41,346 bases of DNA from UHGV virus genome UHGV-0007810. The stretch is one strand, 5' to 3'. The translations under genes and the position numbers were made by a program. This document shows, in pieces, positions 1-39,562 of this stretch (the first letter of the stretch is position 1; every line of letters begins with the position of its first letter). This DNA is from a virus. The notes under the pieces were generated by a model that was given only the letters and a program-made list of their open reading frames with translations, was not told the DNA's origin and ran no database searches.

Positions 1-48
1 TTAACAGCTAACTCATAGCAAGTCATTCCTATTCAGATGCCAACTCAA

Positions 49-79
49 CCCTCTGTTTTTGCAGAGGGTTTTTGTTTTT
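49..79 (+). terminator. Rho-independent terminator-like hairpin upstream of integrase
   Basis: CCCTCTG / CAGAGGG stem (49-55, 62-68) followed by a T-rich run; a related hairpin occurs at 39537-39562. Confidence 0.5.
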
Positions 80-135
80 ATGTATTCATTTCTATTCACT
101 CTACACCATATTTTTCGGCGGTACAGGTGACGGTA

Positions 136-150
136 TTACCTTAAAGGTAT
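136..150. promoter_or_regulatory. Operator-like palindrome (one mismatch) upstream of integrase
   Basis: TTACCTTAAAGGTAT, matches the TTACC-N5-GGTAA family in 9 of 10 fixed positions; lies inside a longer inverted repeat GACGGTA...TACCGTC. Confidence 0.45.
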
Positions 151-192
151 ACTCTCATACCGTCATGAAAATGGTTTCTATACGGGTGAATT

Positions 193-1443
193 GTGCTTAC
201 CGATACAAAATTAAAAAACCTCAAGCCGCAGGACAAACTGTACAAGGTCTCCGATCGTGACGGGCTGTATGTAGCTGTGCTTACGTCAGGCACGGTCTCG
301 TTTCGCTATGACTACCGTATCAACGGTCGCCGCGAAACACTGGTAATCGGGCAGTATGGGCGTGACGGTATCAGCCTGGCAGAAGCGCGAGAAGAACTGA
401 TTGCTGCAAAGAAGCTGCTTAAAGCAGGCCAGTCACCGGCTGCGGCTAAACGTGACGGTATCAAAAAGATTCGTGGTGCCGAGACGTTTGCGGTACATAC
501 CGACAGTTATATGAAACACGTCATCCTGGCTGACAGTACCCGCGCAATGAAACAGGCGGTGATCGACCGTGACATACTTCCGGTTCTTGGCAATAAAATG
601 ATGGCTGAAATTACCACATCGATGGTTCGTGATTTGTGTGACCGGATTGTCGAACGCGGTGGCCGGGCAACAGCAGTGCAGGCCAGGGAGATCATCAGTA
701 GCGTATACCGTCACGCCAATGACCGTGGTCATGGTTTGTTTAATCCTGCGGCTGACATTAAACCTTCGTCTATCGCCATATTTAAACCACGAGAGCGAAC
801 ACTGACACCAGAAGAAATTGGCCTGTTCTTCCGCACGCTGGATGCCATTGGTGCTATGGGCACTATGAAAATGGCTTTAAAACTGGTGCTTATCACTATG
901 GTTCGTAAGGGCGAATTCACCAATGCAACGTGGGATGAAATAGATTTTAAAAAATGGACATGGACAATTCCTCCAGACCGCATGAAGGGAAGCCGGGCGC
1001 ACGTTATTTACCTGCCTAAACAGGCACAGGATATATTGGTCGGGTTGCAGATGTGCGCTGGTGGAAGTGAATATCTGGTTCCTGGTCGTTACAATTTCCG
1101 AAAGCCATTATCTAATGCCGCGCTGAACTCTCTGATCGACAGAACGGTGAAAATAATAAATGAAGATGGTGAGCATATTCAGGACTTCACTGTACATGAT
1201 ATGCGCCGTACAGCCAGTACGTTGTTGCATGAGGCTGGTTATCCTTCAGACTGGATTGAAAAGGCTCTGGCACATGAGCAGAAAGGTGTGCGCGCCGTAT
1301 ATAACAAAGCGGAATACGCCAGACAGCGCGCCTACATGTTGCAGCAGTGGGCCGATATGATTGATTCATGGATTGACGGGGAGCATACGGATCTGATTCC
1401 GTTCTCCCCGTCGAAGTTTGAGAAGTGGATGGCGGGGGAATAA
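193..1443 (+). CDS. Tyrosine recombinase / integrase, P4-type (GTG start in ORF track)
   Basis: 416 aa; N-terminal arm-binding-like region typical of P4-family integrases; C-terminal HDMRRT...HEAGY...VYNKAEY matches the tyrosine recombinase catalytic region. Confidence 0.85.
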   Translation: MLTDTKLKNLKPQDKLYKVSDRDGLYVAVLTSGTVSFRYDYRINGRRETLVIGQYGRDGISLAEAREELIAAKKLLKAGQSPAAAKRDGIKKIRGAETFAVHTDSYMKHVILADSTRAMKQAVIDRDILPVLGNKMMAEITTSMVRDLCDRIVERGGRATAVQAREIISSVYRHANDRGHGLFNPAADIKPSSIAIFKPRERTLTPEEIGLFFRTLDAIGAMGTMKMALKLVLITMVRKGEFTNATWDEIDFKKWTWTIPPDRMKGSRAHVIYLPKQAQDILVGLQMCAGGSEYLVPGRYNFRKPLSNAALNSLIDRTVKIINEDGEHIQDFTVHDMRRTASTLLHEAGYPSDWIEKALAHEQKGVRAVYNKAEYARQRAYMLQQWADMIDSWIDGEHTDLIPFSPSKFEKWMAGE

Positions 1444-1446
1444 CGT

Positions 1447-1641
1447 TTAATAGTTCTGCTGATTTTCTTCCATCTCGGCTTCTGCTGCCAGTGATTCAAT
1501 TTTATCTGCGAATATTGCTGACAGTGTTGCAAATTCAGCATCAGTGACAGCGGGAATTGGAACAAACCTGATCCCGCTGTGTGCAAGCATGTTTGCAGTT
1601 TCAAGGCATTTCCTTAAATCTGCTGGTGATGCCCGGTTCAT
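1447..1641 (-). CDS. Hypothetical small acidic protein (64 aa)
   Basis: Internal ATG at 1641 overlaps the stop of the upstream methyltransferase gene (ATGA), suggesting translational coupling; the longer ORF-track version overlaps that gene. Confidence 0.4.
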   Translation of the reverse strand: MNRASPADLRKCLETANMLAHSGIRFVPIPAVTDAEFATLSAIFADKIESLAAEAEMEENQQNY

Positions 1642-2288
1642 GCTGCACGCTCCCGCCCCTGGTTGTCTGTTGGTGACAGCGGAGCATTGCTGAATGCATT
1701 TGTTAATCTGGCAATATCCAATGCGTATCCAGGGTGTAGTTGCACTGCCGGGTCTTCGCACTGATTACCCCAAACATCGAAGCCATGAGACGACTGGCGG
1801 GCGAACAGTTCAATGCGAGAAACATCGCCTAACAATTGCACAAGTTTTTCACGAACGACATCTGGTTTTCTTGAATGCTCAAGCCGCGGTGCGGTAAATG
1901 ACTGAACGATCCCTGCATTAATGCGCGGAGGTAGTTTTCCCTTTACTGCAAACAGGCAATCTTCACTATTGGCGCGAGTCATGTGTCCCATACCCATAAC
2001 CAGTTTATCTGGTTGTCGACTACCACATTTTATCCATGTGAAGCCCTTCATGGTCATCAGACGGAATCCCCAGGCTTCAACAACTTTTAGAGCTTCGAGT
2101 GGTTGTGTTGGCACCCACCACATGGCCAACAGACAGTTTTCATCGGCCAAATCCCACACAGGAAGGCGGCAGATATCCATCACACTCATAACCGGATATT
2201 TAAAACCGGCACCGCGATTACCATCTGCGGCTTTGTCCCGGTATACCCAGGGTGGATCTGCATAGATTAGTGTGTATTTCTTAGTCAT
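1638..2288 (-). CDS. DNA N6-adenine methyltransferase, MT-A70-like
   Basis: 216 aa with the catalytic DPPW motif (LIYADPPWVY) near the N-terminus; GGGGTGG Shine-Dalgarno upstream. Confidence 0.75.
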   Translation of the reverse strand: MTKKYTLIYADPPWVYRDKAADGNRGAGFKYPVMSVMDICRLPVWDLADENCLLAMWWVPTQPLEALKVVEAWGFRLMTMKGFTWIKCGSRQPDKLVMGMGHMTRANSEDCLFAVKGKLPPRINAGIVQSFTAPRLEHSRKPDVVREKLVQLLGDVSRIELFARQSSHGFDVWGNQCEDPAVQLHPGYALDIARLTNAFSNAPLSPTDNQGRERAA

Positions 2289-2580
2289 AAACCACCCCGC
2301 AACATCCTATACCGCTATAGTCGCCACGGCGAAGGCCGTTACCTTTTGTGATACATTGGTCCCTGCGAACCGCGATCCTTGCACGCTCAACATCACCAGA
2401 AGCAACATCCATACACTGAAGCCAAAGGTGAGCGGCAATGCGGAACTGTCCTTTTTTCTCTCTTTCAATTGCGCGTTTTTCGATCTCTATCGCCGCAGGA
2501 GTAACGGCGACAATCTTTGACGGACTGCGCATTGAAACCTTGTTCATGTGATATTTTTCAAGTCGGCTTAACTTTCTCAC
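2281..2580 (-). CDS. Hypothetical protein
   Basis: 99-aa ORF ending with an overlap onto the methyltransferase start; start codon uncertain (GTG at 2580 or internal ATGs). Confidence 0.35.
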   Translation of the reverse strand: MRKLSRLEKYHMNKVSMRSPSKIVAVTPAAIEIEKRAIEREKKGQFRIAAHLWLQCMDVASGDVERARIAVRRDQCITKGNGLRRGDYSGIGCCGVVYD

Positions 2581-2689
2581 TTAATCCAACCCTCTCTGAA
2601 AATTAATGCCAGCAGATAAAGCCATGCTGAAACAGAGGCCAGGAATAAGTACCATCCTGACCATTTGCTCCAGTGCCTTAGCAGCACAC

Positions 2690-2938
2690 TCATGCAGCGT
2701 TGCTCACAGGACGATATACACGTTGCTGAACAGGAGGTTTTTTACCCTGGAACTCTGCCGGGCTTGCTGCCTGACGTTCATCAAGCCAACGCTCAACTTC
2801 ATCACGGTTCCATGCGCAGCGTTTATCGGTGATATACCAGCGTTTAGGAAATTCCCCTGCGCGCTCCATACGATCGATAGTGCTCCATGACAGTGGCACC
2901 ACCGCCAGGAGTTCCTTCTTACCTAATGCACCTTTCAT
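2690..2938 (-). CDS. AlpA-family excisionase / transcriptional regulator
   Basis: 82 aa; LLAVVPLSWSTIDRMERAGEFPKRWYIT resembles the AlpA/Xis helix-turn-helix; GAGAGG Shine-Dalgarno. Confidence 0.65.
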   Translation of the reverse strand: MKGALGKKELLAVVPLSWSTIDRMERAGEFPKRWYITDKRCAWNRDEVERWLDERQAASPAEFQGKKPPVQQRVYRPVSNAA

Positions 2939-2987
2939 AAATACCTCTCTTGGTTGCAGTGCGGCGCGCGTGGCGCCGCGGTGGTGG

Positions 2988-3869
2988 TTACATAGATGTT
3001 TCGTTTAATTCTTCCCGACGAACGCTGTAAACGTCGGTGGCTTTTGCCAGCAGTTCGTCATCATCTGAAAGTTTTTGTGCAATATATTTGTAAGCCTTAT
3101 CCAGTTCGGAGACAGTGCTGTAATTCATCGCTGCGCTGGTAAAGGCCATCAGCATTTCTTCTGGCTCACGGCTATCCGCTTTACGCGTTTGCTCATCAGG
3201 CTTTTTCACTGATTTAGCGTTGATCAGACTGTTCATTCCCGCAGCCGTAGTTGTTTGCGGAGTAATGTCTCGCTCAACGCGCGGTGCCGTTTCCTGTAAT
3301 TCGTCAGGGGTGTAAACACCAAGAAGTACATCAGGAGCGTGCAGGCGAGCCCATCGTTTCGTGCAAAGATAGGCAAGTTGCTGGCGCGGATCCTGTTCCC
3401 ACAATGGAGAGTTACGCACTCCGGCTTGCGCCATACTGATGGTAAGCTCACGTGGTTCTGCTTCTCCTTTAAGGACTGCTGACACAGTTACCGTCAGATT
3501 CGGTGATTTATCTGTTTTGCCGTTAACATTCGACCAGTCACCGCTCCAGCGATAATTAAGGCGTGTCGCCAGCAGGCTGGAAGAGGATACGACCGCGTTT
3601 ACCAACTGTGCTTCGTAGCCTAACGTTCCGTTTACCACATGCGTTTTCTGCGCCACGGCGAAAGGGTTCATTCCCCACTGTGCCGCCTGCATGGTCACCG
3701 CCAGACAATCGGCAGGTTTGCCTTCAAGATGTTTCGGTACAGTCGCTTTGCTTTGTGACATCAACTCCGCGAAACGCACCAGTTGATTCATGCCCTCCGG
3801 GCTGAAGATTGCCGCAGCAGTACCTACAGTTGCGCCTGGTTGTGATGTGATTGCGATATCATTGCTCAT
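2988..3869 (-). CDS. RecT-family single-strand annealing recombinase
   Basis: 293 aa; the central region (KPADCLAVTMQAAQWGMNPF...GTLGYEAQL) resembles RecT/Bet-like proteins; start overlaps the stop of the upstream exonuclease gene. Confidence 0.65.
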   Translation of the reverse strand: MSNDIAITSQPGATVGTAAAIFSPEGMNQLVRFAELMSQSKATVPKHLEGKPADCLAVTMQAAQWGMNPFAVAQKTHVVNGTLGYEAQLVNAVVSSSSLLATRLNYRWSGDWSNVNGKTDKSPNLTVTVSAVLKGEAEPRELTISMAQAGVRNSPLWEQDPRQQLAYLCTKRWARLHAPDVLLGVYTPDELQETAPRVERDITPQTTTAAGMNSLINAKSVKKPDEQTRKADSREPEEMLMAFTSAAMNYSTVSELDKAYKYIAQKLSDDDELLAKATDVYSVRREELNETSM

Positions 3870-4687
3870 ACGTACATATCCTGTTTACGTGCCCAGTCAG
3901 GGCGTTTAATAATTTCCACTCCGCCCCACTCATCGTTGATGCGGCATTCGTGATAGGTATTCAGATCCCGGCGGAACAGAGCGTGCCCGGCATCGACATC
4001 CGGCGCATCCAGCTCGAACACGCGTACCGGATATCGACCACAATCAATGCTTTCGCTCACGGCAAGAAAGAAAAAACCATGCGGCTGACCAGTAACCCTC
4101 ATTGCGCCTTCGCGGTACATTGCGTCCTGCACGTGGTAGCGGAATTCCTCGATGTGGCGTGCAAAACGGTCCATATCTGCAACCTTTTTCACGTCGACGA
4201 TCACGTTGTGCTCGTTCAGCCATTTGTCTGGACGAATGCGGCACAACTCACCAGTATCTTCATCGTTCCAGTACATTGATGCTTCGCAGTAACCAGGTGC
4301 TTCCAGCATCCAGCGTGCCGCCGGGTGAGCCATTGCGCTATCACGCATCAGCTCCAGTTTCCGCCACTGCTCGGCATCAAGTACCGTAATCCCCATATCC
4401 GCCACATCACGAAGAAATGCCTCTTCGTCAGCTTTACCTTGTTTCGTCCGACGATCGAATTTCGGTGAAACAATGAAGCGTTTGTCGAACTCTCCAGGCT
4501 CCAGAAGCAGACAGTGCAATGCGGTTCCCATATCCAGTGCAGACTTTTTCTCTTCGTCTTCTGGTGCTGCCTGAACCCATTTAAGAAGCGCCGGATTCTT
4601 GGCAACCATGTCCAGTTGCGACTTACTCACGCCGTCACCGGCGTGGTAGTCTTCGTTGCTGATGTCGAAATAAATTCCCGGTTTCAT
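3866..4687 (-). CDS. RecE-like exonuclease (PD-(D/E)XK nuclease domain)
   Basis: 273 aa; N-terminal YFDISNEDYHA motif and overall pattern resemble the exonuclease VIII / YqaJ-type nuclease domain; paired with RecT. Confidence 0.65.
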   Translation of the reverse strand: MKPGIYFDISNEDYHAGDGVSKSQLDMVAKNPALLKWVQAAPEDEEKKSALDMGTALHCLLLEPGEFDKRFIVSPKFDRRTKQGKADEEAFLRDVADMGITVLDAEQWRKLELMRDSAMAHPAARWMLEAPGYCEASMYWNDEDTGELCRIRPDKWLNEHNVIVDVKKVADMDRFARHIEEFRYHVQDAMYREGAMRVTGQPHGFFFLAVSESIDCGRYPVRVFELDAPDVDAGHALFRRDLNTYHECRINDEWGGVEIIKRPDWARKQDMYV

Positions 4688-4983
4688 GCCGCGTCCCTCT
4701 GTCCATCAAGCTGATCCGCCAGATCCCAGCGCGCTATAATTGCCATTGCCTCTCGCCGATAGGCATCCATCAGTTCTTCGAACTCAGGGCTGTCTTTAGC
4801 AGCCTCCAGCACTTCCTGACGAACGCCTTTGCCTGTTACAACGTCGAAAGTTGAGGACAGTTGATGAAGTCGGATGCTCTCAATCAGTTCAACTTGTCGG
4901 TCATATAGCTGTTCTGACAGGCGGTAGTCCTTGTCGAATGCCAGCATGATTTTTTGAAGATTTTTCTGCTGATTAACGTTCAT
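4684..4983 (-). CDS. Hypothetical protein (about 99 aa from the second ATG)
   Basis: ORF-track ORF 4684..4998; the second ATG at 4983 is preceded by GGAGGG and is the likelier start. Confidence 0.5.
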   Translation of the reverse strand: MNVNQQKNLQKIMLAFDKDYRLSEQLYDRQVELIESIRLHQLSSTFDVVTGKGVRQEVLEAAKDSPEFEELMDAYRREAMAIIARWDLADQLDGQRDAA

Positions 4984-4985
4984 TA

Positions 4986-5138
4986 TCAGCCCTCCCATAT
5001 CTCGTTATCGTTGGCTACATCGCGAGCTTCTTTGCTGACGAAAGCCCACTTAATGCCTTCCTGTAAGGTGCGGAACTTCCAGCTCATGAATCCGCATGCA
5101 GTAACGCAGTACCAACCTTTGATGATTTTCCACTGCAT
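4986..5138 (-). CDS. Hypothetical small protein (50 aa), first gene of the leftward early operon
   Basis: Not in the ORF track (<60 aa); hand translation MQWKIIKGWYCVTACGFMSW...; GAGGT Shine-Dalgarno 8 nt upstream; stop lies 2 nt before the next start. Confidence 0.35.
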   Translation of the reverse strand: MQWKIIKGWYCVTACGFMSWKFRTLQEGIKWAFVSKEARDVANDNEIWEG

Positions 5139-5157
5139 AACTTGTTACCTCGGTCTG

Positions 5158-5172
5158 TTACCGTTGAGGTAA
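5158..5172. promoter_or_regulatory. Operator-like palindrome TTACCGTTGAGGTAA
   Basis: Exact TTACC-N5-GGTAA, 20 nt upstream of the first gene of the leftward early operon. Confidence 0.55.
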
Positions 5173-5219
5173 TAATTATGCGTATTTGGTTTGATGTCAA
5201 TAGATATGAGTTAAAAAAA

Positions 5220-5234
5220 TTACCCATTAGGTAA
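5220..5234. promoter_or_regulatory. Operator-like palindrome TTACCCATTAGGTAA
   Basis: Exact TTACC-N5-GGTAA in the promoter region of the leftward early operon. Confidence 0.55.
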
Positions 5235-5244
5235 TAGTATAGGC

Positions 5245-5269
5245 AATAAAAAAGCCGCCAGAAGGCGGC
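5245..5269 (-). terminator. Rho-independent terminator after the repressor gene
   Basis: GCCGCC-AGAA-GGCGGC hairpin with an A-run on the + strand (T-run on the - strand). Confidence 0.6.
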
Positions 5270-5291
5270 TTACTTACTGAAAAGTATGATT

Positions 5292-5876
5292 TTATTGTTT
5301 GTTTTTTTCGTTCTGGTTGATGACAAATTCAATGTAACTTTCGATCTTTGCTTTCTCGGTTTCGGGTAACAATGCGTAGCGCGAGCGGTCATAGTTGATG
5401 GTCGCAGGGTCGTGCGGGTGAATCAGTAATTCATAGCCGTGACGCCCGAATGCGGATGCAACATTCTCCAGGGTGGAAATGGAAACGCTGACCTCATTGT
5501 TTAACAGGCGACTGATTGTCACCTGGGCGACGCCGGATGCGCGGTGAAGTTTTCCCTGCGTTGAAAGGTCGCGGCTTTCGCTCATCCAGCGTTCCAGGTT
5601 GTGAGCCGCCAGCTGACCAATGTCGCTTGGGCCGACAGGCTGAAAACCTTCCTGAGAAAGCGAGCGATCGATATCAAGCCAGTTACGGGGTTTATTGGCG
5701 GCAGCTTCAATTTTTCGTGCAACCTGGTCGCCGATAACCTTCTTGCCAAGAGCCCAGCGGTTTACCAGATTTGCCTGAGTTCCAAGTTTTTCTGCCATCC
5801 GCGTCTGAACACCATTGAATTCACGGTCGATCAAGTCGTTGAGATTTTGCCTGCGGACGTCCTGGATACTTTTCAT
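5292..5876 (-). CDS. CI-like phage repressor with two helix-turn-helix regions, no LexA-like peptidase domain
   Basis: 194 aa; HTH-like segments near the N-terminus (QTRMAEKLGTQANLVNRW) and the middle (ASGVAQVTISRLLNNE); divergent from the cro-like gene; no G-D-S-M / Ser-Lys cleavage-domain signature seen. Confidence 0.7.
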   Translation of the reverse strand: MKSIQDVRRQNLNDLIDREFNGVQTRMAEKLGTQANLVNRWALGKKVIGDQVARKIEAAANKPRNWLDIDRSLSQEGFQPVGPSDIGQLAAHNLERWMSESRDLSTQGKLHRASGVAQVTISRLLNNEVSVSISTLENVASAFGRHGYELLIHPHDPATINYDRSRYALLPETEKAKIESYIEFVINQNEKNKQ

Positions 5877-5931
5877 TTTCTGGAAAATCGCCTCATATAT
5901 GAATCAGTAGATGATTCAATTTAAAGCAATA

Positions 5932-5946
5932 TTACCCAACAGGTAA
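5932..5946. promoter_or_regulatory. Operator O1 in the repressor/cro intergenic region
   Basis: TTACCCAACAGGTAA, exact. Confidence 0.6.
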
Positions 5947-5948
5947 AT

Positions 5949-5963
5949 GCACCTCATAGGTAA
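5949..5963. promoter_or_regulatory. Operator O2 (variant) in the repressor/cro intergenic region
   Basis: GCACCTCATAGGTAA, one half-site mismatch; centre 17 bp from O1. Confidence 0.5.
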
Positions 5964-5979
5964 CTATCCTTGATTTTTG

Positions 5980-5994
5980 TTACCTTATGGGTGA
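5980..5994. promoter_or_regulatory. Operator O3 (variant) in the repressor/cro intergenic region
   Basis: TTACCTTATGGGTGA, one half-site mismatch; about 40 nt upstream of the cro-like start. Confidence 0.5.
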
Positions 5995-6030
5995 ATATTT
6001 ATTATCTGAAATAAATATCAGGCAATAGCT

Positions 6031-6261
6031 ATGAGCGATAACGGACATTTCGATTTCAAAAAGCACTGGCTTGCACTTACTCCGGATGAGCGTGAAGCCT
6101 TCGCACAGGAAGCCGGAACGACGAGTCACTATATCCAGACTCACTTAACAGGTAAGCGCAAAATGCCAGGTAAGGTATTGATGAATGGGCTTTTTAAAGC
6201 CTGTAAAACAAGACAATGGCTGCGCTCAAAAGCAGAACTGGCATACTTCTTCTACTCATGA
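6031..6261 (+). CDS. Cro-like HTH regulator
   Basis: 76 aa; HTH-like LTPDEREAFAQEAGTTSHYIQTHLTGKRK; divergent from the repressor across the triple-operator region. Confidence 0.6.
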   Translation: MSDNGHFDFKKHWLALTPDEREAFAQEAGTTSHYIQTHLTGKRKMPGKVLMNGLFKACKTRQWLRSKAELAYFFYS

Positions 6262-6283
6262 TATCCAGCCACAACCCTCTGTA

Positions 6284-6308
6284 GACCGCCATCCGGCGGT
6301 CTTTTCAT
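6284..6308 (+). terminator. Rho-independent terminator after the cro-like gene
   Basis: GACCGCC-ATCC-GGCGGTC followed by TTTTCAT. Confidence 0.6.
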
Positions 6309-6316
6309 ATCTATTC

Positions 6317-6331
6317 GTACCTCAAAGGTAA
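6317..6331. promoter_or_regulatory. Operator-like palindrome (variant) GTACCTCAAAGGTAA
   Basis: Just downstream of the post-cro terminator and upstream of the replication operon. Confidence 0.45.
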
Positions 6332-6411
6332 TAAAAAACCAAATCTGGTTGATCTTTTTTTTGTGTCAGCACAAAATGACCGTAATCCCAATACTAATAA
6401 CAGGGCTTACC

Positions 6412-6612
6412 ATGGAAATCATTACACGTATTGATGCCGCAAAGCGCGGACTTAAACGCTACTACACCGGAAAACCATGTAAGCATGGACATGACAGTGA
6501 ACGCTGGGTTTACAACGGACACTGTGTTGAGTGCACCATGGAATCAAACCGTCGCATCAGGGCAGAGATTAAGCAGATCATGATTAATTCCTCCCCACAA
6601 CACTCAAGCTGA
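6412..6612 (+). CDS. Hypothetical Cys/His-rich small protein (cII position)
   Basis: About 66 aa from the ATG at 6412; C-x4-H ... C-x2-C arrangement (KPCKHGH...GHCVEC); start uncertain (ORF track starts at 6349 with TTG). Confidence 0.45.
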   Translation: MEIITRIDAAKRGLKRYYTGKPCKHGHDSERWVYNGHCVECTMESNRRIRAEIKQIMINSSPQHSS

Positions 6613-6627
6613 TAGCGGAGATTAATC

Positions 6628-7443
6628 ATGAGCAGACATGCAACAGATTGGGCCTGGGAGACAGATCCAGGTAGCTCATCATTAAAGCTCATACTGCTCT
6701 CGATGGCTGACAGAGCCGATGAATATAACCTCTGCTACCCCAGCATAGAACGCCTCGTTAAAGACACTTGCCTGAATAAAAAAACCGTGCAGGCCGGGCT
6801 TATATCGCTCATGAAAATGGGGCTTATTTCAGATACCGGAGAGAGAAAGGGAGCGACAAAAAGAGTGCGGGTTTTCTCTCTTAATATAACCAAAAACGGG
6901 AACATTAAAGGCAACCGGGAGGGGGGCAATGAACCCGAAAACGGTAATGTTACCGAAAACGGGAATATACCCAAAAACGGGATGTTGAATGATCCCAAAA
7001 ACGGGATGTTGAATGATCCCAAAAACGGGATCCAGAACCAGTCATATAACCAGTCATTTAACCAAGAGAGGGAGAGCAGGACAAAAACCGGGGATTCTGT
7101 TCCTCATGACCCCGGCGCAAACAACGCCGTGATGAATAACTTTGTTCCTCCTGGTGGGCCAGGGCAATTAGGCAAATTTGTCATGCATGAACAATGGCAG
7201 CCATCAGATGACTTTCTTCGGAAAAGCTCATTGCAGGGAATCTACCTGGACAGTCTGCCAACGGCACAGGAACTTGCAGAGTTCAGAATTTACTGGATGG
7301 CTGAGGGTAAGGCATACCATCAGGCACAGTGGGAGCAGAAGCTGGCAAGGCGGCTGCAGATTAGCAGACAGAAGCAATCAACATTACCTGATAACAACGT
7401 TCCGCACTGGAACAGCCCTGAAGCATGGGAGGATTTCTTGTGA
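6628..7443 (+). CDS. Replication initiator (O-like, N-terminal DNA-binding domain)
   Basis: 271 aa; GGAG Shine-Dalgarno; position before the P-like gene; internal KNG-rich repeat region encoded by direct DNA repeats. Confidence 0.6.
   Translation: MSRHATDWAWETDPGSSSLKLILLSMADRADEYNLCYPSIERLVKDTCLNKKTVQAGLISLMKMGLISDTGERKGATKRVRVFSLNITKNGNIKGNREGGNEPENGNVTENGNIPKNGMLNDPKNGMLNDPKNGIQNQSYNQSFNQERESRTKTGDSVPHDPGANNAVMNNFVPPGGPGQLGKFVMHEQWQPSDDFLRKSSLQGIYLDSLPTAQELAEFRIYWMAEGKAYHQAQWEQKLARRLQISRQKQSTLPDNNVPHWNSPEAWEDFL
6889..7035. repeat. Iteron-like direct repeats inside the O-like gene (candidate replication origin)
   Basis: Six copies of CC(A/G)AAAACGG(G/T) at 6889, 6934, 6954, 6971, 6994, 7018 (spacing 17-45 bp); two are full 24-bp repeats CCCAAAAACGGGATGTTGAATGAT; AACCAGTCAT x2 follows at 7047-7067. 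Confidence 0.6.
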
Positions 7444-8225: not shown

Positions 8226-8230
8226 TACCA

Positions 8231-8250: not shown

Positions 8251-8262
8251 ACGTCTCGATAA

Positions 8263-8277
8263 TTACCTTCGAGGTAA
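8263..8277. promoter_or_regulatory. Operator-like palindrome TTACCTTCGAGGTAA
   Basis: Exact; upstream of a sigma70-like promoter (TTGATT-17-TTTAAT at about 8297-8325). Confidence 0.55.
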
Positions 8278-8324
8278 TAAAATATTCTAAAATCTATTGA
8301 TTTCGTGTCTTATGTGGTTTTTAA

Positions 8325-8339
8325 TTACCTAAGGGGTAA
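8325..8339. promoter_or_regulatory. Operator-like palindrome TTACCTAAGGGGTAA
   Basis: Exact; overlaps the putative -10 and ribosome-binding region 4 nt before the ATG at 8343. Confidence 0.55.
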
Positions 8340-8342
8340 ATC

Positions 8343-11305: not shown

Positions 11306-11315
11306 CATGGTACTA

Positions 11316-11330
11316 TTACCACAACGGTAA
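11316..11330. promoter_or_regulatory. Operator-like palindrome TTACCACAACGGTAA
   Basis: Exact; 20 nt upstream of the small terminase start, within an 11-bp direct repeat ACTATTACCAC x2. Confidence 0.55.
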
Positions 11331-11350
11331 CTATTACCACGGTGGTTACG

Positions 11351-14076: not shown

Positions 14077-14153
14077 TGGCGTGGCATGCAGGATTCGAAC
14101 CTGCGACCAACCGCTTAGAAGGCGGTTGCTCTGTCCAACTGAGCTAATGCCAC
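14077..14153 (-). tRNA. tRNA-Arg (anticodon UCU)
   Basis: Reverse complement folds as a cloverleaf: acceptor GTGGCAT/ATGCCAC, D-stem GCTC/GAGC, anticodon stem ACCGC/GCGGT with loop CTTCTAA (anticodon TCT), T-arm GCAGG-TTCGAAT-CCTGC, discriminator G and CCA. Confidence 0.9.
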
Positions 14154-14475
14154 AACGCTGAGAGCACTTAGCCTGTTAAGTCGCCACACTTTGTCGCGGC
14201 TCCATAAATGCTCTCAGCGTTGTACCCTCGTCTCTTCCGAGGCGTCACACCGAATCGCCGGGATGGTGAATTCCCGTGCGCGGAATAAAACCGCTCGACT
14301 TGCACATTCCGGCTACCTGGTTCGTTTGCCCGAGCAAGGGAGGGTGCCCCTTAAACGTATCCAGACCGCTATCGGCGCATGTGCCATACGCCGTACTGCT
14401 CAAAATAAAAGCTCACTCCACCTGTTCAATTTAACGACAAGCCAGTCAGGTTAGTAACCGGAATGAACTCTTTGG

Positions 14476-14490
14476 TTACCTGAAAGGTAA
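14476..14490. promoter_or_regulatory. Operator-like palindrome TTACCTGAAAGGTAA
   Basis: Exact; about 90 nt upstream of the small ORF that precedes the portal gene. Confidence 0.55.
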
Positions 14491-14580
14491 TAATTCGCGC
14501 GTTAAATGTCAACTGTCTACGATAAATAAATCATATGTGGTTAAATTGGTAATAATTTAATTGCGTACGGAGTCATTGAT

Positions 14581-30742: not shown

Positions 30743-30755
30743 ATTAGGTGACTAC

Positions 30756-32038: not shown

Positions 32039-32098
32039 GACATTACCTCATATCTCATAAGTTCATTACACGGATTAATAAAAATGAAACCAATCCGT

Positions 32099-32113
32099 TT
32101 ACCCTTGAGGTAA
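32099..32113. promoter_or_regulatory. Operator-like palindrome TTACCCTTGAGGTAA
   Basis: Exact; in the promoter region of the leftward small-ORF / YafO-like unit. Confidence 0.55.
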
Positions 32114-32161
32114 TAGTACGCTATTCACCCACAGTCTGCAATCTGTACAGAATTATTTAAA

Positions 32162-32177: not shown

Positions 32178-32185
32178 GCCGCCCG

Positions 32186-32881: not shown

Positions 32882-33150
32882 AGTGGTTACCTTTTAGTCA
32901 GGTTAATCACCACTACCGACGCCAATCGGTTGGTGGTGAACTGTGCAGGGTTGGCGTAACCGGCTAAAAGGACCCGGCGCACCTTTCGGTGCCCCCACAC
33001 AGCCCACCATAATACGAATGTGGCCGTGCTATACGCATAAAAAAACCGCTTGCGCGGTGAATGCGCCTTTTAGTAATCCGGGACGCCAATCCCGGCACTG
33101 GATTTTGCCAGTGCCCGATTACTATGGCACAAGAGGAGTGCAATGTAAAT

Positions 33151-33165
33151 TTACCGCAAAGGTAA
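33151..33165. promoter_or_regulatory. Operator-like palindrome TTACCGCAAAGGTAA
   Basis: Exact; in the divergent region between the Bro-N gene and the zinc-ribbon gene. Confidence 0.55.
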
Positions 33166-33243
33166 TGATAAACGCGGAGAAATATTAAAATCAACCGCAT
33201 TTGGTTGATTGCGTTTAACGCTTGATCACCTGAAAGCAAGATA

Positions 33244-33258
33244 TTACCTTTAAGGTAA
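33244..33258. promoter_or_regulatory. Operator-like palindrome TTACCTTTAAGGTAA
   Basis: Exact; 20 nt upstream of the ATG at 33279. Confidence 0.55.
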
Positions 33259-33278
33259 TGTTATTGTGAGGAAAAGCA

Positions 33279-34007
33279 ATGGAAGTTTTCTGGATAGTTG
33301 TTGGTGTTGTTACGGTGATTATTTACGTTATCAACCAGAACAGGACTAAGGTCTCTGATCGCACAGTCGTTAATCATCGCAAAACGATAAAGACCGAAGA
33401 TGGAGAAATAACGATTAATCGTACACAGGTGATAGACCACACCTCCACTCAGTTTCAAAAAACTGGAGGTAATGCGCCTAATATTTCCGCACCTCCTGCT
33501 TATGATAGTGCGGTAATCCAGACATATTATAAACAGCAGGAGTTAGCAAAAGAGAGGCAACTGATTCAGCCAAAGCCATTTACAGCAGAGCTTCCACCTG
33601 GAGTGTCAACGCGTCCGGCATATCATGGAAGATTCCCTGGTGATGACATATCGTCTCAGTCATCTAAAAAAGCACCTCAGGCAGTATCAGAGCCAGCAAG
33701 AATACCTTCTGTATCGCCGCCAAAAGAAGAATCAGCTAACAGAGTTTCAAGTGGTAGCAAGCAGTGCTTGCGATGCAGAATAAACCTTCCATATGAAAAA
33801 TTCAGGAAATCGTCAAAAAATCCAGATGGATTGACTAAGTGGTGTGCAAGGTGTCTCGATGGTCCAAAGAATACACGCCATATGAAGTGGTGCCCAATTT
33901 GTAATGTCCGCAGAAAACGAACCAGCTTTTACCCTAATAATCAAAATGCGGATGGCTTAATGGCATGGTGCAAAACGTGCTGGGACGAGCACAAAGCGAA
34001 ACGATAG
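33279..34007 (+). CDS. Membrane-anchored protein with tandem C-x2-C ... WC-x2-C zinc-ribbon-like repeats
   Basis: 242 aa; N-terminal TM helix (FWIVVGVVTVIIYVI), Pro/Ser-rich linker, two repeats CLRCR...DGLTKWCARC and CPICN...DGLMAWCKTC. Confidence 0.6.
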   Translation: MEVFWIVVGVVTVIIYVINQNRTKVSDRTVVNHRKTIKTEDGEITINRTQVIDHTSTQFQKTGGNAPNISAPPAYDSAVIQTYYKQQELAKERQLIQPKPFTAELPPGVSTRPAYHGRFPGDDISSQSSKKAPQAVSEPARIPSVSPPKEESANRVSSGSKQCLRCRINLPYEKFRKSSKNPDGLTKWCARCLDGPKNTRHMKWCPICNVRRKRTSFYPNNQNADGLMAWCKTCWDEHKAKR

Positions 34008-34030
34008 GCCGCTCTAGCGGCCTTTTCTTT
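34006..34030. terminator. Bidirectional terminator-like hairpin between convergent genes
   Basis: AGGCCGC-TCTA-GCGGCCT followed by TTTCTTT. Confidence 0.55.
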
Positions 34031-34286
34031 ATGTGGTTTGTTTTCGTAATTGTTCGGCACAATAGTCGAGATGTGTTTGCAAATCCTGCATAGACATCTG
34101 TGAGCTGGTGACGTAGTTAATCAGTGCAGTCAGTTCGGCAAGTGGGCCATCGACATTAAATCCATCCTTATCGAGATCCCGGAGTAATTTCATCAAGTGC
34201 GATCCCTCCACCAGTGACCTGACGCCTCCCGGCGTGTGAATCCTTTCGGTAAATCCGTCTTCCAGTGGATAGTGATACTGCTGCAT
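34029..34286 (-). CDS. Small protein behind a LexA box (candidate SOS-induced antirepressor)
   Basis: About 85 aa from ATG 34286 (GGAG 8 nt upstream); homologous to the Bro-N protein C-terminus; consensus LexA box 22-37 nt upstream of the start. Confidence 0.6.
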   Translation of the reverse strand: MQQYHYPLEDGFTERIHTPGGVRSLVEGSHLMKLLRDLDKDGFNVDGPLAELTALINYVTSSQMSMQDLQTHLDYCAEQLRKQTT

Positions 34287-34307
34287 CTTATCTTCTCCAT
34301 GCAATAA

Positions 34308-34323
34308 CTGTATATTTATACAG
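34308..34323. promoter_or_regulatory. LexA (SOS) box
   Basis: CTGTATATTTATACAG with flanks AA...TA; matches CTGT-N8-ACAG and the consensus TACTGTATATATATACAGTA at 18 of 20 positions. Confidence 0.7.
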
Positions 34324-34362
34324 TATCAAATAATTTGTTTGCTATCCAGCACGTTTTGCAAA

Positions 34363-34377
34363 TTACCCGAAAGGTAA
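34363..34377. promoter_or_regulatory. Operator-like palindrome TTACCCGAAAGGTAA
   Basis: Exact; between the LexA-box promoter and the tail-fibre gene. Confidence 0.55.
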
Positions 34378-34481
34378 TATCTGTTCATATTCACAGTCTT
34401 TCTATCCATATGTGGTTTTTCAGGTAATAGAATAACCAGATATGCGGCGCAACGGGTGCTGCGACTATCTGGAGATTTAAC

Positions 34482-37109
34482 ATGACGGTCTCAACCGAAG
34501 TTGACCACAACGAATACACAGGTAACGGCGTTACGACATCATTTCCGTATACCTTCCGTATTTTCAAAAAATCCGACCTGGTTGTTCAGGTGTCTGACCT
34601 TAACGGTAACGTAACAGAACTAGTGCTGGATGCTGGTTATACAGTAACAGGGGCGGGAACTTATAGTGGCGGTGCAGTGGTTCTTCCGTCGCCGCTTGCT
34701 GCTGGCTGGCGAATCACGATAGAGCGTGTGCTTGATGTGGTGCAGGAGACTGATCTTCGCAATCAGGGAAAATTTTTCCCCGAAGTTCATGAAGATGCAT
34801 TTGACTACCTGACGATGCTGATCCAGCGATGTTTTGGGTGGTTCAGACGTGCATTGATGAAACCATCTTTGCTTGCAAAATATTACGATGCAAAGCAAAA
34901 CAGAATTTCCAATTTGGCCGATCCGAAGAACTCTCAGGATGCTGTAACAAAAAAATATGTGCAAGACTTATATAGTGGGGTAGTTAGGCCTGATAACATC
35001 GACAACGCAATGTATGTTACAGATCTCGCTAATGGCAAATATGACAGCTCTCGCTTGGACATGTCTGTCGGGTATGAGATAAAAACCATTTCAAACTTTG
35101 TCAGGATTAATGGGGCTGTTTATCGTGTTACTCCTGCTGCAGTCGGCATAGTGACAGAAATAACCTCGCGTTACATTTTGGCCGGAGGGAAAAAAAGCTA
35201 CCTGTCTCATATTTCCAGGCATGTCAGTGGTACGCGTAGGCCGCTGAACTGGAAATTAGAATTCAGCATCATAGACGATGAGATTACCGCAGATCTTAAA
35301 GATCAGTATGGTTACACGACCATGGGATTTCAGGGGATTTACATAGACAGCAATGATGGAATGGTATACATCGGCTGGCAGACGCTAGACCCCGCATCGG
35401 TATGGGTTACGGTGCATGACTGGGTAACAGGAGCATTGGTAACACGTCTTCATTTTCCGAATAACGTTGGTGCACCAGAAGGCATCCACGTTTACCGAGT
35501 GGCAGGACAGCGTTACATCCTGCTGCCGTACAGCCCATCTCGCACTATCAGAATTTACCCTATCGAAGATCCGCGTACGCTGGTTGATAAAACGCAGATT
35601 ACAAACTTCACTGAATCAACACGCCTTGGAGTGCGATATCAGTTTAGTGGCTTTGGTAATACCCTGATATACGAAAATGCGGATATGGGTTGGCCGAAAA
35701 TTTTTGATGTTGAGACAGGTGTATCCAATATCTTTAACACACTGGATATTAACAGCCTTATAGAAGGATCTTACAGTCCAATGGGGACTATTACGGTTGA
35801 TGCAAATGTTGGAGGTCGCGGAGCCGGTAAACCAAAACGGCAGGGTGTCGCTCTTGGTTCTCAACGGATATTTGCTGGTATTGGTGCATCTACCACGGCG
35901 GGATCTGGAAATACTTTCGCAGGGTTGCAGGGTTATATTGAGTACAGCCTTAATGGTTCAGAATTAGGTCAGTACCTGCTGTCACCTGCAGATTTCAAAA
36001 CATACTGGGATAGTTATTCAGGGAAGAGTGTTTACTCCACTGAAAATGAGGGGGTGCAGTCTTGTGATATTTCTGGCTCTGAGGAATTGTATCTTCTACA
36101 GTCTATTCGCTATGACAATGGGGGCGGATCAAATTATAGGACTTTAAACATCATTCGCGCTAACTGTCCATCTAATGAACCTGGAACAGTAGACATGACT
36201 CCGCTATCCAATGCCTCATCACAGTTATTTAACCCTCGCGGAAGGGTGATTAACGCTGGCCGTCACCCTGTAAACCCGGCTGATGGTATTGCGCTATTTA
36301 CATCGGCACAGGCTATTTGTGACTATTTGCGGAATACAGATGCAGGTAGATATGTGACATATCTTGAACAGGATATGCCACTGTTTGAAGGTGGGCCATC
36401 TGCGCCAGGACAGATGACGCTGCCAGCATTCTGCCTATTGCAGATCGACTTCATCAACGGCGATACCTGGGAAATTACAGTTAATGGAACTAACAGGGCT
36501 AATAATTATACAGGAAGGATTTCCAAAAACGGCGGGTACAACTCTTTTACTAAGGTGTCCTCCCGCAGCATGTCGATTCTCGGATCCCCTGGTCTGGTTG
36601 ATGTATCAATTCGCTCACCTAACTCACTAAATCTTCCAGAATTTGCTGGAGACTGGTCTACTGGTGTAAGTATAGGAGCTGCAGGTGGGGTGACAAACTG
36701 GCAGCCAGAAGGAACAGGTAACGGAGCATTATGGGAGTCAGGATATGCAAAAAACCGTGTGTTGCAGATATTCATGTCCACAACATCAAAGCTGTTCTTC
36801 CGCTACGCAGACGATGCTATTCGCGCAGGTAACACAGGCTGGGCTGAGGCATGGTCGTCGCTGAACACGACCGTCGATTCAAGTGGTTTCATCAAAAAAG
36901 CCTCTCCGGTTGTGAAGATTTTCTCAGACGGTAGTAGTGAAACAAATCGCGAATCAGATGGGGTAACCGTCACACGGCTGGCATTGGGTGAATATCTGAT
37001 TGAGGGTTGCGTAGGTCTGAATGCAGATGCTTCATGGGGGGGGATTGATGGTGGATTTGAAATACCGCAGGACCGAAACAAGCAGCCGCTCATCGGATTA
37101 TGTTGTTAA
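34482..37109 (+). CDS. Tail fibre / tailspike protein
   Basis: 875 aa; GGAG Shine-Dalgarno; N-terminal ~150 aa resemble the T7 gp17 virion-attachment domain as recalled (YTGNGVTTSFPYTF..., ISNLADPKNSQDAVTKKYVQ). Confidence 0.75.
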   Translation: MTVSTEVDHNEYTGNGVTTSFPYTFRIFKKSDLVVQVSDLNGNVTELVLDAGYTVTGAGTYSGGAVVLPSPLAAGWRITIERVLDVVQETDLRNQGKFFPEVHEDAFDYLTMLIQRCFGWFRRALMKPSLLAKYYDAKQNRISNLADPKNSQDAVTKKYVQDLYSGVVRPDNIDNAMYVTDLANGKYDSSRLDMSVGYEIKTISNFVRINGAVYRVTPAAVGIVTEITSRYILAGGKKSYLSHISRHVSGTRRPLNWKLEFSIIDDEITADLKDQYGYTTMGFQGIYIDSNDGMVYIGWQTLDPASVWVTVHDWVTGALVTRLHFPNNVGAPEGIHVYRVAGQRYILLPYSPSRTIRIYPIEDPRTLVDKTQITNFTESTRLGVRYQFSGFGNTLIYENADMGWPKIFDVETGVSNIFNTLDINSLIEGSYSPMGTITVDANVGGRGAGKPKRQGVALGSQRIFAGIGASTTAGSGNTFAGLQGYIEYSLNGSELGQYLLSPADFKTYWDSYSGKSVYSTENEGVQSCDISGSEELYLLQSIRYDNGGGSNYRTLNIIRANCPSNEPGTVDMTPLSNASSQLFNPRGRVINAGRHPVNPADGIALFTSAQAICDYLRNTDAGRYVTYLEQDMPLFEGGPSAPGQMTLPAFCLLQIDFINGDTWEITVNGTNRANNYTGRISKNGGYNSFTKVSSRSMSILGSPGLVDVSIRSPNSLNLPEFAGDWSTGVSIGAAGGVTNWQPEGTGNGALWESGYAKNRVLQIFMSTTSKLFFRYADDAIRAGNTGWAEAWSSLNTTVDSSGFIKKASPVVKIFSDGSSETNRESDGVTVTRLALGEYLIEGCVGLNADASWGGIDGGFEIPQDRNKQPLIGLCC
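37036..37043. repeat. G8 homopolymer near the tail-fibre 3' end
   Basis: Eight consecutive G, 66 nt before the tail-fibre stop, where a +1-frame ORF begins. Confidence 0.9.
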
Positions 37110-37326
37110 CCAAGATGGATCTGTGTTGGTGAAAACGTTTCACCGCACTCATGATAACTCGCCCGTTTTTGCACGTAACGACATCCCTGGTGTTTCGAAC
37201 GGTGACCCGATCGACATTCCTGCTAATCAATTCGTTTCTGTGCGAGTACAGATGCCTGAGGATTCTGCATGGAATAAGCTTAAGGAACAACTCAATAAGG
37301 CTGAACCAATGGAAAAAAATAAGTAA
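37048..37326 (+). CDS. Hypothetical ORF in the +1 frame overlapping the tail-fibre 3' end (separate gene or frameshifted continuation)
   Basis: About 92 aa; begins right after the G8 tract and overlaps the tail-fibre gene by 62 nt. Confidence 0.3.
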   Translation: MVDLKYRRTETSSRSSDYVVNQDGSVLVKTFHRTHDNSPVFARNDIPGVSNGDPIDIPANQFVSVRVQMPEDSAWNKLKEQLNKAEPMEKNK

Positions 37327-37483
37327 TTATTTTCCATATCAGGCATGGCGGAGAAATCATAAGTTTAGTAATTACCACGGCAAGGACGCCACTTATCAAC
37401 AATGTAATTATCATTTAATTCTCTTGACATCCTCTACGCCAAGAAGAACTAGTTTTTACGGCGCACCGGATAAATACGAATAA

Positions 37484-37536
37484 TCAAGAATAATATTGAG
37501 TAATAATTATTCTTATATGGTTTGTTGTGTATAATT
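37484..37536 (+). promoter_or_regulatory. AT-rich inverted repeat and candidate sigma70-like promoter for the lysis cassette
   Basis: AAGAATAATATT...AATTATTCTT inverted repeat; TATAAT at 37530-37535 with a weak -35 (TTATTC) 17 bp upstream. Confidence 0.3.
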
Positions 37537-37571
37537 AGCTGACAGTTTAAGTGGATCTGTATATACAAAAT

Positions 37572-37988
37572 ATGGTGCACATTATGTCAGCTCAACTAAC
37601 TAGTGAATCTTTAAATCAATGGCTTAGCATGAGTTCTCTTGCTGCGGTTATAGCAGGAGTTCCTCCTGAGGTTGCTTTAGGGTCTTTGGCTGGTGCGGTA
37701 ATTTTTGTTACCTCTGCGGTAGAGTACCCAATTCATCGTCGCGTACTCTTATCGATGCTTAGCTTTCTCTGCGGCCTTCTTTTTTATAAACCAGCAGCAT
37801 CAATTCTTATCGGCATAGCCAGCCTGATCCCTACTATCACGCAGGACTCTTTTGAAAAAGGGATTGTTTTCTCTGCTGGCGCATTCGTGTCAGCAATTGT
37901 TGCTGTGCGTATTGGTATATGGCTCTACCACCGTTCCGATAATCCACGCGAGTTAATTCCGGGGAGAAAAGACGATGGTAACGCATGA
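37572..37988 (+). CDS. Holin (putative, multi-TM), possible dual start
   Basis: 3-4 hydrophobic helices; two in-frame ATGs separated by three codons (M-V-H-I-M), reminiscent of holin/antiholin dual-start motifs; start uncertain (ORF track gives GTG 37551). Confidence 0.5.
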   Translation: MVHIMSAQLTSESLNQWLSMSSLAAVIAGVPPEVALGSLAGAVIFVTSAVEYPIHRRVLLSMLSFLCGLLFYKPAASILIGIASLIPTITQDSFEKGIVFSAGAFVSAIVAVRIGIWLYHRSDNPRELIPGRKDDGNA

Positions 37989-38283
37989 GTTTTTTTTGCT
38001 TATCACCAATGCAGTTATTTGTACTGGCATAGCAATTCGCGTTGTCACATTCCGGCGTAACGGATCTCAACATCGAAGATGGGGGGGGTGGCTTGCTTAT
38101 TTCCTGATTGTTGCTGCGGCCAGTATTCCGGTTCGTGTTGCCTATGCAATCTGGTTCCGCACGCCAATGGCTGTGGATTTATCTGAGGTCATTATCAACG
38201 CTGTCATGCTCGCTGCGGTTATTAAAACGCGCGGTAACGTCGTTCAAATTTTCAAAGTATCGAGGTCTAAACATGGAGATTAA
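37975..38283 (+). CDS. Second small membrane protein of the lysis cassette (holin/antiholin-like)
   Basis: 102 aa with 2-3 TM segments; GGAG Shine-Dalgarno; its end overlaps the endolysin start; contains a G8 tract. Confidence 0.45.
38081..38088. repeat. G8 homopolymer inside the lysis-cassette membrane-protein gene
   Basis: Eight consecutive G, in frame. Confidence 0.9.
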
Positions 38284-38902
38284 ACAATTCCAGCGAGCTG
38301 CTGGTATCAGCGAGGCGCTGGCTGCACGCTGGTTCTCGTATATAACTTCTGCGATGAGAGAGTTTGGTATCAGCAAACCAGAAGATCAGGCTATGTTTAT
38401 TGCTCAGGTCGGGCATGAGTCTGGAGGCTTCACCAGGTTGCAGGAGAATTTCAATTACAGCGTCACCGGACTGGCTAACTTCGTTCGTGCCGGTCGTCTC
38501 ACTCAGGGACAGGCCAACGCACTGGGTCGCCGTGCTGGTGAACCGCCATTACCACTCGAGCGCCAGCGTGCGATCGCAAATCTGGTGTACAGCAAACGCA
38601 TGGGGAACAATGCCCCCGGCGATGGCTGGAATTACCGAGGTCGCGGACTTATCCAGATTACCGGTTTGAATAACTATCGTGATTGCGGAAACGGCCTGAA
38701 AGTGGACCTGCTGGAGAATCCTGAACTGTTGGCGCAGGACGAATACGCGGCTCGTAGCGCGGCGTGGTTCTTCTCCAGCAAAGGCTGCATGAAGTATACC
38801 GGAGATATTGCACGTGTAACTCTGCTTATCAATGGTGGCCGGAACGGCATTGATGACCGGCGCGCGCGATACATCACTGCCAGTAAGGTGCTGGCGGTAT
38901 GA
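38273..38902 (+). CDS. Endolysin, glycoside hydrolase family 19 (chitinase-like)
   Basis: About 209 aa; motifs [13 protein letters not shown] and [11 protein letters not shown] are characteristic of phage GH19 endolysins; no N-terminal signal-anchor. Confidence 0.8.
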
Positions 38903-39381
38903 TCTGGGCATTCGCAAAAGCATACTGGAAACAGTTGGTTATCATGGCGATGTTTGCTGTTCTGGTCATATCAGGAGTTGTAGCCTGGAATGCACACGGC
39001 AGTCGTCAGTACGATGCCGGGTATGCACAGGCGAAAGAAGACCGCAAAACCGAAGATGAGAGAATTCGTCAGCACTACGAACAGGAGAAATCGATCAATG
39101 AACGTGAAGCGCAGCAGAGGATCGACCAGGCGCGCAATGATGCTCTTGATGCTGCCGCTCGCGCTGGCCGGTTGCAGCAACAGCTCGTTGCCATCCGTGA
39201 GCAGCTCAGGCACTATAACGCCATTGTCGGCGCTGGGTCGTCAGCCGCAGACACCGGAGTTTTGCTTGCCGACGTGTTCAGCAAATCTCTCGAGAGAAAT
39301 AGACAACTGGCAGAGTATGCTGACCGGGCAGCCGAAGCCGGAAGAGTCTGCGAAAAACAGTACGACACCCTGACCAGATAG
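38899..39381 (+). CDS. i-spanin (Rz-like)
   Basis: 160 aa; N-terminal TM helix then a charged coiled-coil domain; ATGA overlap with the endolysin stop. Confidence 0.7.
39098..39373 (+). CDS. o-spanin (Rz1-like lipoprotein) embedded in the i-spanin gene in the +1 frame
   Basis: ATG 39098 with AGGAGA upstream; signal peptide with lipobox LALAGC; Pro/Ser-rich mature part; wholly nested. Confidence 0.6.
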   Translation: MNVKRSRGSTRRAMMLLMLPLALAGCSNSSLPSVSSSGTITPLSALGRQPQTPEFCLPTCSANLSREIDNWQSMLTGQPKPEESAKNSTTP

Positions 39382-39536
39382 CATGGCATTTTTCATGGTA
39401 CTTATTTCCGGTGACGGTATATAAAACGGTACGAGAAAAATTCATCTTTGGAAAAATGTTATCACTCAATTGGTTATGGTATCCGTAAATAATTGAGTGG
39501 GAATGATTTTGATCCCTGCACTATGAATGAACAAAA

Positions 39537-39562
39537 CCCTCTGTTACTACAGAGGGTTTTTT
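39537..39562. terminator. Rho-independent terminator after the lysis cassette
   Basis: CCCTCTG-TTACTA-CAGAGGG followed by TTTTTT; same stem as the hairpin at 49-68. Confidence 0.65.

Follow-up and report, generated by a model that had tools for sequence, protein, structure and literature searches.

A 17-bp core at the end of guaA, and not the flanking hairpins, bounds a Uetakevirus prophage of Escherichia coli whose predicted terminator shares its stem with that of the host

Integration into the 3′ end of a gene is known from phage 21 and e14, in icd, and from P4-family elements, in tRNA genes; these bring along a substitute for the 3′ end of their target gene. Hairpins close to attachment (att) sites are known as well. 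The sib element of lambda lies downstream of the integrase gene (int) and acts via RNase III on read-through int mRNA. In Uetakevirus phages the target is the end of guaA. The 17-mer ATTGAGTGGGAATGATT is the attP/attB core of vB_EcoP_ZX5, as established by polymerase chain reaction (PCR) and Sanger sequencing of attB, attL and attR, and the same core is stated as proven for phiV10 and epsilon15 (PMC9782041). GIsul2 targets GAGTGGGA within the same gene end (PMC9376610). Here we analyze UHGV virus genome UHGV-0007810, a stretch of 41,346 nucleotides (nt) referred to below as the window. An earlier note, made from its sequence alone, had pointed to related hairpins at both ends of the element and offered them as candidate attachment-site remnants or merely similar terminators. 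We find that the window very probably carries an E. coli Uetakevirus (phiV10/epsilon15-like) prophage in the guaA 3′ end, in a single account that covers the core, the origin of the two hairpins and their nature as terminators.

The true junctions map to ATTGAGTGGGAATGATT at the guaA end, not to the hairpins. This 17-bp block is the sole stretch common to the guaA end with window positions 1-2 (attL), to positions 39480-39515 (attR) and to E. coli K-12 (attB), and it spans the last four guaA codons, the stop codon and two further bases. In strain XJ55 the end of guaA lies exactly one base before window position 1. At attL the core occupies positions -14 to +2; all but its last two bases lie left of the window, which is why the window alone does not reveal it. 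Joining the prophage ends predicted a circular attP junction that reads ...CGTAAATA-ATTGAGTGGGAATGATT-AACAGCTAAC.... The reconstructed attP (700 nt) found one contiguous match with 100% coverage in the free phages phiV10, ZX5, EC.W1-9, epsilon15 and SPN1S; identity was 96-99% in phiV10, vB_EcoP_ZX5, EC.W1-9 and O157 typing phages and ~86% in epsilon15 and SPN1S. The boundaries of the prophage are fixed by the 17-bp core, and the hairpins are assigned one to the phage and one to the host.

The locus shares with the guaA module of phiV10, epsilon15 and ZX5 the core, the closely matching att region (96-99% in phiV10, ZX5 and EC.W1-9), the order lysis genes, P arm, core, hairpin, int, and a 190-bp interval between core and int start codon, as PMC9782041 states. 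It differs in nothing of substance, the window having G for A at position 61. According to this arrangement, the P4-type tyrosine integrase would insert the phage at the final 15 bases of guaA together with two bases beyond them, and the core copy carried by the phage would restore the guaA reading frame. As in phage 21, e14 and the P4 family, the 3′ end of the target is duplicated and the gene is intact after integration. Unlike in these elements, only 15 coding bases are duplicated in the window prophage, and there is a second block of identity, namely the terminator stem downstream, with spacers of unrelated sequence between it and the core. Among E. coli, the host-side bases right after the core vary (TTTGACCC in K-12, TTTTGATCCC at window positions 39507-39516, and TTTTAATCCC), the remaining spacer and the hairpin being constant.

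Both hairpins described in the earlier note are present, one beside int and the other beside the lysis genes as it had said, and 27 of 32 bases (84%) are identical between positions 42-73 and 39530-39561 (repeat finder, family D10). The right one is found base-for-base in K-12 MG1655, between guaA and yfgI. In this strain, which has no prophage at the site, the two genes are convergent neighbors in the order guaA, core, spacer, hairpin, yfgI, and the guaA-yfgI spacer reads TGA-TTTGACCCTGCACTATGAATGAAC-AAAACCCTCTGTTACTACAGAGGGTTTTTT. Since it is present at the K-12 locus without prophage, the right hairpin is the host's own terminator. The same hairpin at an empty site is the very outcome that the earlier note had named beforehand as speaking against its attachment-site reading, and together with the mapping of the junctions to the 17-bp block it makes that reading fail. 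The genes yfgI, yfgH and yfgG, in the right 1.8 kb of the window, were found in all 5426 complete E. coli genomes searched, the integrase end in 554 of them (~10%), and guaA and yfgI are adjacent, i.e. the site is unoccupied, in 4463. The native stem is followed by TT and then TTATCTT, and the RNA fold gave -20.1 and -20.5 kcal/mol on the two strands. Integration would have shifted this terminator ~39.5 kb away from guaA.

The left hairpin, by contrast with the host copy on the right, is phage DNA. It lies in the P′ arm of attP (window 3-192), 44 nt past the core, and the GenBank records of phiV10 and epsilon15 label it a rho-independent terminator. Its stem includes one U.G pair, closes on the loop TTTT and is followed by TTTGTTTTT; the RNA fold gave -16.5 kcal/mol (z score -4.3 versus shuffled sequence) and the terminator scan also called it. 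The U.G pair, at the top of the stem, comes from the G at position 61, a variant that is also seen in other prophages. Folds far stronger than those of shuffled sequence, and T-runs, at both hairpins therefore bear out the terminator alternative of the earlier note. Its description of one 7-bp stem with different loops was right for the loops (TTTT versus TACT) and wrong for the stems, which have 10 pairs on the left and 12 on the right.

We then looked at the variation of the left hairpin in 87 P′ arms from phages and prophages of several host genera, which gave 32 distinct hairpin sequences for alignment. In these sequences 97.5% of cells were paired, the unpaired ones coming from two sequences with a one-base register shift, and pairing fell to 27-69% in the register control. 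All of the 17 one-sided stem changes were U-A to U.G (A to G in the 3′ arm), a change that keeps pairing only in the RNA of the + strand. The 5′ arm AACCCTCTGT was constant in all but one of the 87 elements, and there a T-to-A change is offset by A-to-T in the 3′ arm. The ten bases directly 5′ of the stem were hypervariable. This pattern fits a selected RNA hairpin read in the guaA-to-int direction; the variation is small, and we take it as supportive rather than strong. No additional role has to be invoked for the constancy of the 5′ arm, because C-G to U.G changes are costly and U-A to U.G changes nearly neutral.

In the lysogen, guaBA transcripts most likely stop at the left hairpin, 46-79 nt past the rebuilt stop codon, the hairpin taking the place of the displaced native terminator and most likely guarding int against host read-through. 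In the circular phage the hairpin lies ~170 nt past the last lysis gene and would terminate the late/lysis transcript before int. Lambda sib is likewise a hairpin near att, one whose position relative to int differs between phage and prophage. Unlike sib, hairpin 47-79 stands upstream of int (193-1443) and on the same strand in both arrangements. A retroregulator of the sib type was thus ruled out, the hairpin not being downstream of int in either state; from its upstream position it could therefore only block incoming transcription. The locus may thus offer a small testable example of an element that preserves expression of its target gene and shields its own int from host read-through.

The likeness of the two hairpins is closer than the words 'merely similar' in the earlier note conveyed. 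The two are terminators as that wording held, and the phage 10-bp stem AACCCTCTGT/ACAGAGGGTT is identical to the native stem of E. coli and is kept across the 87 relatives, with sister genera of the host differing at the locus. The likeness is limited to the stem and T-run, and phiV10 equals E. coli at 25 of 27 positions. Counting both strands, AACCCTCTG has five occurrences in the window where 0.23 would be expected, and none of 100 shuffles reached that number. Native guaA-yfgI spacers of relatives were reached through YfgI homologues and their contigs. The native hairpin of Citrobacter portucalensis is AAAAGCCCTCT-ATATGAC-AGAGGGCTTTT and that of E. albertii AAAACCCTCC...GGAGGGTTTT. In Salmonella bongori there is a separate guaA terminator, AACCCGCT...AGCGGGTT, plus AAACCTCTG...CAGAGGTTT beside yfgI; the native stem of Pseudocitrobacter is different again, and in the one contig of S. 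enterica examined guaA and yfgI are not adjacent. The hairpin of E. coli form is found in all Uetakevirus phages, including those of Salmonella, Klebsiella and Enterobacter. A host hairpin that drifts between genera and a phage form that stays constant argue against chance and against host-by-host mimicry; the latter was rejected, as phages of other genera retain the E. coli-type stem.

Shared descent with an Escherichia-type guaA-yfgI spacer most likely explains why the 10-bp stems are identical, the route being either capture in an ancestral phage or gene conversion in lysogens. More tentatively, and as a proposal that we consider rather unlikely, two separate blocks, the core and the terminator stem, would be common to attP and the 3′ region of E. 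coli guaA, the stem having been captured from or exchanged with an Escherichia-type host. If this proposal were true, the exact stem might matter beyond generic termination, for instance in forming native-like guaA 3′ ends or as a site on the DNA within the intasome.

Other explanations of the paired hairpins were weighed on the same evidence. They could be att sites, or remnants of an older or secondary att, with the inverted repeats as core-type integrase sites and crossover in the loop. Their bracketing of the element beside int and the lysis genes would suit this, as would a 9-10-bp inverted repeat round a 4-6-nt center, which resembles the core layout of tyrosine recombinases. Yet attL and attR need an identical overlap region, and the loops differ; the stretch of 44 nt that precedes the left hairpin comes from the phage, being continuous with the P arm in free phage genomes; the right hairpin is found in empty sites; and experimental junction mapping gives the 17-mer (PMC9782041). 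Also, a hairpin-to-hairpin deletion scar (guaA, phage spacer, hairpin, yfgI) was found in 0 of 5426 E. coli genomes, the full-length matches being empty sites at 91% identity. We regard this explanation as extremely improbable. Two terminators that arose independently, alike by chance or by convergence on the general terminator form, would be in keeping with ordinary G+C-rich stems with T-runs, with unlike loops and with unrelated spacers between core and hairpin. Such an origin is improbable in view of the identity of the 10-bp stems and of the phiV10 match to the host, the near absence of AACCCTCTG elsewhere in the window, the diverged native hairpins of sister genera at the locus and the quite different stem of a sister guaA island described below. 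Descent could also have run in reverse, the native E. coli terminator having been left by an ancient guaA element or overwritten by gene conversion from a prophage. The frequency of this prophage type in complete E. coli genomes gives ample chance for conversion, and Tatumella terrea, which has an island spacer and hairpin with no integrase within 3.5 kb, suggests that element terminators can stay behind. But the E. coli spacer differs from the phage spacer, scar genomes were not found among the 5426, and Citrobacter, E. albertii and S. bongori have related hairpins of CCCTC/CCTCTG type on the yfgI side, which fits vertical descent in the host; we give the reverse route a slightly better chance than independent origin, still a low one.

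Several points weigh against the account of a phage terminator and a displaced host terminator of common stem. When the phage and host spacers that separate core from hairpin (44 and 26 nt, respectively) were aligned, no significant similarity appeared (shuffle p about 0.8); therefore simple capture of the contiguous E. coli guaA 3′ region is not the whole story. The ~12 bp upstream of the hairpins, which the earlier note found partly similar, do have a few bases alike, within these otherwise unrelated spacers. Read on the - strand, the native hairpin is followed by a broken T-run and received no call from the terminator scan, which leaves a role in yfgI termination less certain. A consensus promoter scan from the left hairpin to the int start codon found none. 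Actual termination at the left hairpin, and with it the insulation of int, is a probable outcome predicted from sequence. Finally, the epsilon15 record predicts a site for integration host factor (IHF) that overlaps the hairpin, and a role at the DNA level is thus possible. The left hairpin would in that case act, besides or instead of termination, as double-stranded DNA in the attP intasome, at an IHF or accessory-protein site, and this would explain its strict conservation. Its place between the core and the arm-type sites and the near invariance of the 5′ arm AACCCTCTGT, with the single change compensated, are compatible with such a role. Against it, the one-sided changes all retain pairing in + strand RNA only and, with the compensatory change, are characteristic of an RNA hairpin; a constant 5′ arm is what energetics would predict; hypervariability upstream of the stem affects the very bases needed for a full IHF consensus; and the sister island carries a different hairpin at the same place. 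A DNA role of this kind thus appears about as doubtful as an independent origin of the stems. A search of Rfam 15 over both hairpins returned no family at gathering score, only sub-threshold matches to terminator-containing leaders (E-values 0.1-0.7).

The end of guaA is shared by other elements. The 15-mer ATTGAGTGGGAATGA, which codes for the GuaA C-terminus IEWE and the stop codon, a nearly universal end of GuaA, is unchanged in many bacterial phyla and some archaea among the matches listed (loci L011-L130), and this conservation across phyla makes it an attractive integration target. In that scan of species-representative genomes, the matches listed held almost no enterobacterial empty sites. 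GIsul2 and related guaA islands use the same conserved guaA end as the window prophage. A second family of guaA-end islands encodes an integrase 53% identical to that of the window and has the layout core, spacer, hairpin, arm repeats, int. It differs from the window prophage in its hairpin (AAGCCCGCGTAACTGCGGGCTT) and arm repeats (GTCTGGCA) and is not a phage; it may be distinct from GIsul2. We found it in a Citrobacter sp. (L102) and to the right of Uetakevirus prophages (L152, L172, L220 and L236), sometimes in tandem. The spacer and hairpin that are kept in T. terrea (L048) are those of this second island. Placing a terminator right after the restored stop codon seems to be a design common to this integrase group: elements at the guaA end would bring their own terminator, and that of Uetakevirus is almost a copy of its E. 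coli counterpart.

The att site and the left terminator are both already described for Uetakevirus. The identity of the phage and E. coli stems is the only point not found in searchable literature, no paper on the resemblance of the two terminators having been found in the open-access part, and it is a modest evolutionary footnote. The value of the analysis lies mostly in correct annotation, and the finding is essentially ordinary. Coordinates are collected in Table 1.

Table 1. Features at the prophage ends and elsewhere in the window, with the basis of each assignment
Feature	Position	Strand	Basis
Last two bases (TT) of the attL core copy; the other 15 are the guaA end just left of the window	1..2		guaA position in XJ55; published core
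Phage-derived P′-arm spacer, core to phage hairpin	3..46	+	contiguous with P arm and core in phiV10, ZX5, EC.W1-9 and epsilon15
Phage-borne predicted intrinsic terminator: stem 47-56/61-70, loop 57-60, T-run 71-79	47..79	+	fold, terminator scan, phiV10/epsilon15 annotation, conservation
Candidate arm-type integrase site GTGACGGTAT, P′ arm	127..136	+	repeat count, epsilon15 spacing
Candidate arm-type copy of GTGACGGTAT, 1 mismatch	157-166	-	repeat count
Candidate arm-type copies of GTGACGGTAT	362-371, 452-461		repeat count
Candidate arm-type copy of GTGACGGTAT	705-714	-	repeat count
P4-type tyrosine integrase, transcribed away from the core	193..1443	+	Pfam Arm-DNA-bind_3, Phage_int_M, Phage_integrase
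Phage-borne tRNA-Arg, anticodon TCT	14077-14153	-	
Rz-like spanin (DUF2514), closing the lysis cassette, with no further phage gene up to the P arm	38899..39381	+	Pfam DUF2514, annotations
Candidate arm-type site GTGACGGTAT, P arm	39411..39420	+	in 8/8 aligned attP regions; epsilon15 annotation
attR copy of the core ATTGAGTGGGAATGATT; duplicated guaA 3′ end coding IEWE and stop	39492..39508	+	identical to guaA end; published core
Native E. coli spacer 3′ of guaA (B′ side)	39509..39532	+	K-12 match bar small length polymorphism
Native terminator between convergent guaA and yfgI: 12-bp stem 39533-39544/39549-39560, loop TACT, T-run	39533..39566		K-12, fold, scan (+)
yfgI (DUF5384), host gene convergent with guaA	39601..40140	-	annotation, Pfam
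ATTACC-N5-GGTAAT sites	135-149, 5157-5173, 5219-5235, 5931-5947, 6318-6332, 8262-8278, 8324-8340, 11315-11331, 14475-14491, 32098-32114, 33150-33166, 33243-33259, 34362-34378		

The integrase annotation is also present in E. coli genomes and phages. Around it, the decamer GTGACGGTAT has 10 matches in the window against 1.84 expected; these flank the core on both sides and extend into the 5′ part of int. By their spacing, the copies at 39411, 127, 362 and 452 match four protein_bind features labeled 'integrase' in the epsilon15 record. The repeats are likely arm-type sites of the integrase, and we list them as candidates.

A shorter hairpin core had been reported to recur at 2586 and 6275. Such AACCCTCT cores exist, at 2588 and 6273 in fact, and neither has an inverted partner. 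The one at 2588 gave no fold (z score -0.3) and the one at 6273 simply borders on a different, unrelated terminator (6283-6302). With about 0.8 expected, two additional 8-mers are compatible with chance. The 12-mer AACCCTCTGTAG (6273-6284), which is the - strand reading of the native hairpin, was likewise dropped, about 0.2 such matches being expected by chance according to our own estimate.

Other repeats of the window were noted in passing. The palindrome ATTACC-N5-GGTAAT gave 27 strand-matches against 1.44 expected (it also appears as repeat families D2 and D3), many of them apparently intergenic by position, with one copy in the stretch that leads from the left hairpin to the start of int; a phage regulator probably uses the palindrome as its operator. 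Rfam matches above gathering score were obtained for C4 antisense RNA and isrK, at 32929-33014 (-) and 33039-33114 (-), which we take to resemble the small-RNA antirepressor control of P1/P7-type immunity systems. Between 6882 and 7034 there are four to five copies of a 24-nt repeat with the core CCNAAAACGGGA and a spacing of 18-24 nt (family D1). They lie inside an open reading frame (6628-7443) annotated as a DnaT-like single-stranded-DNA-binding protein, beside replication protein P, and look like origin iterons.

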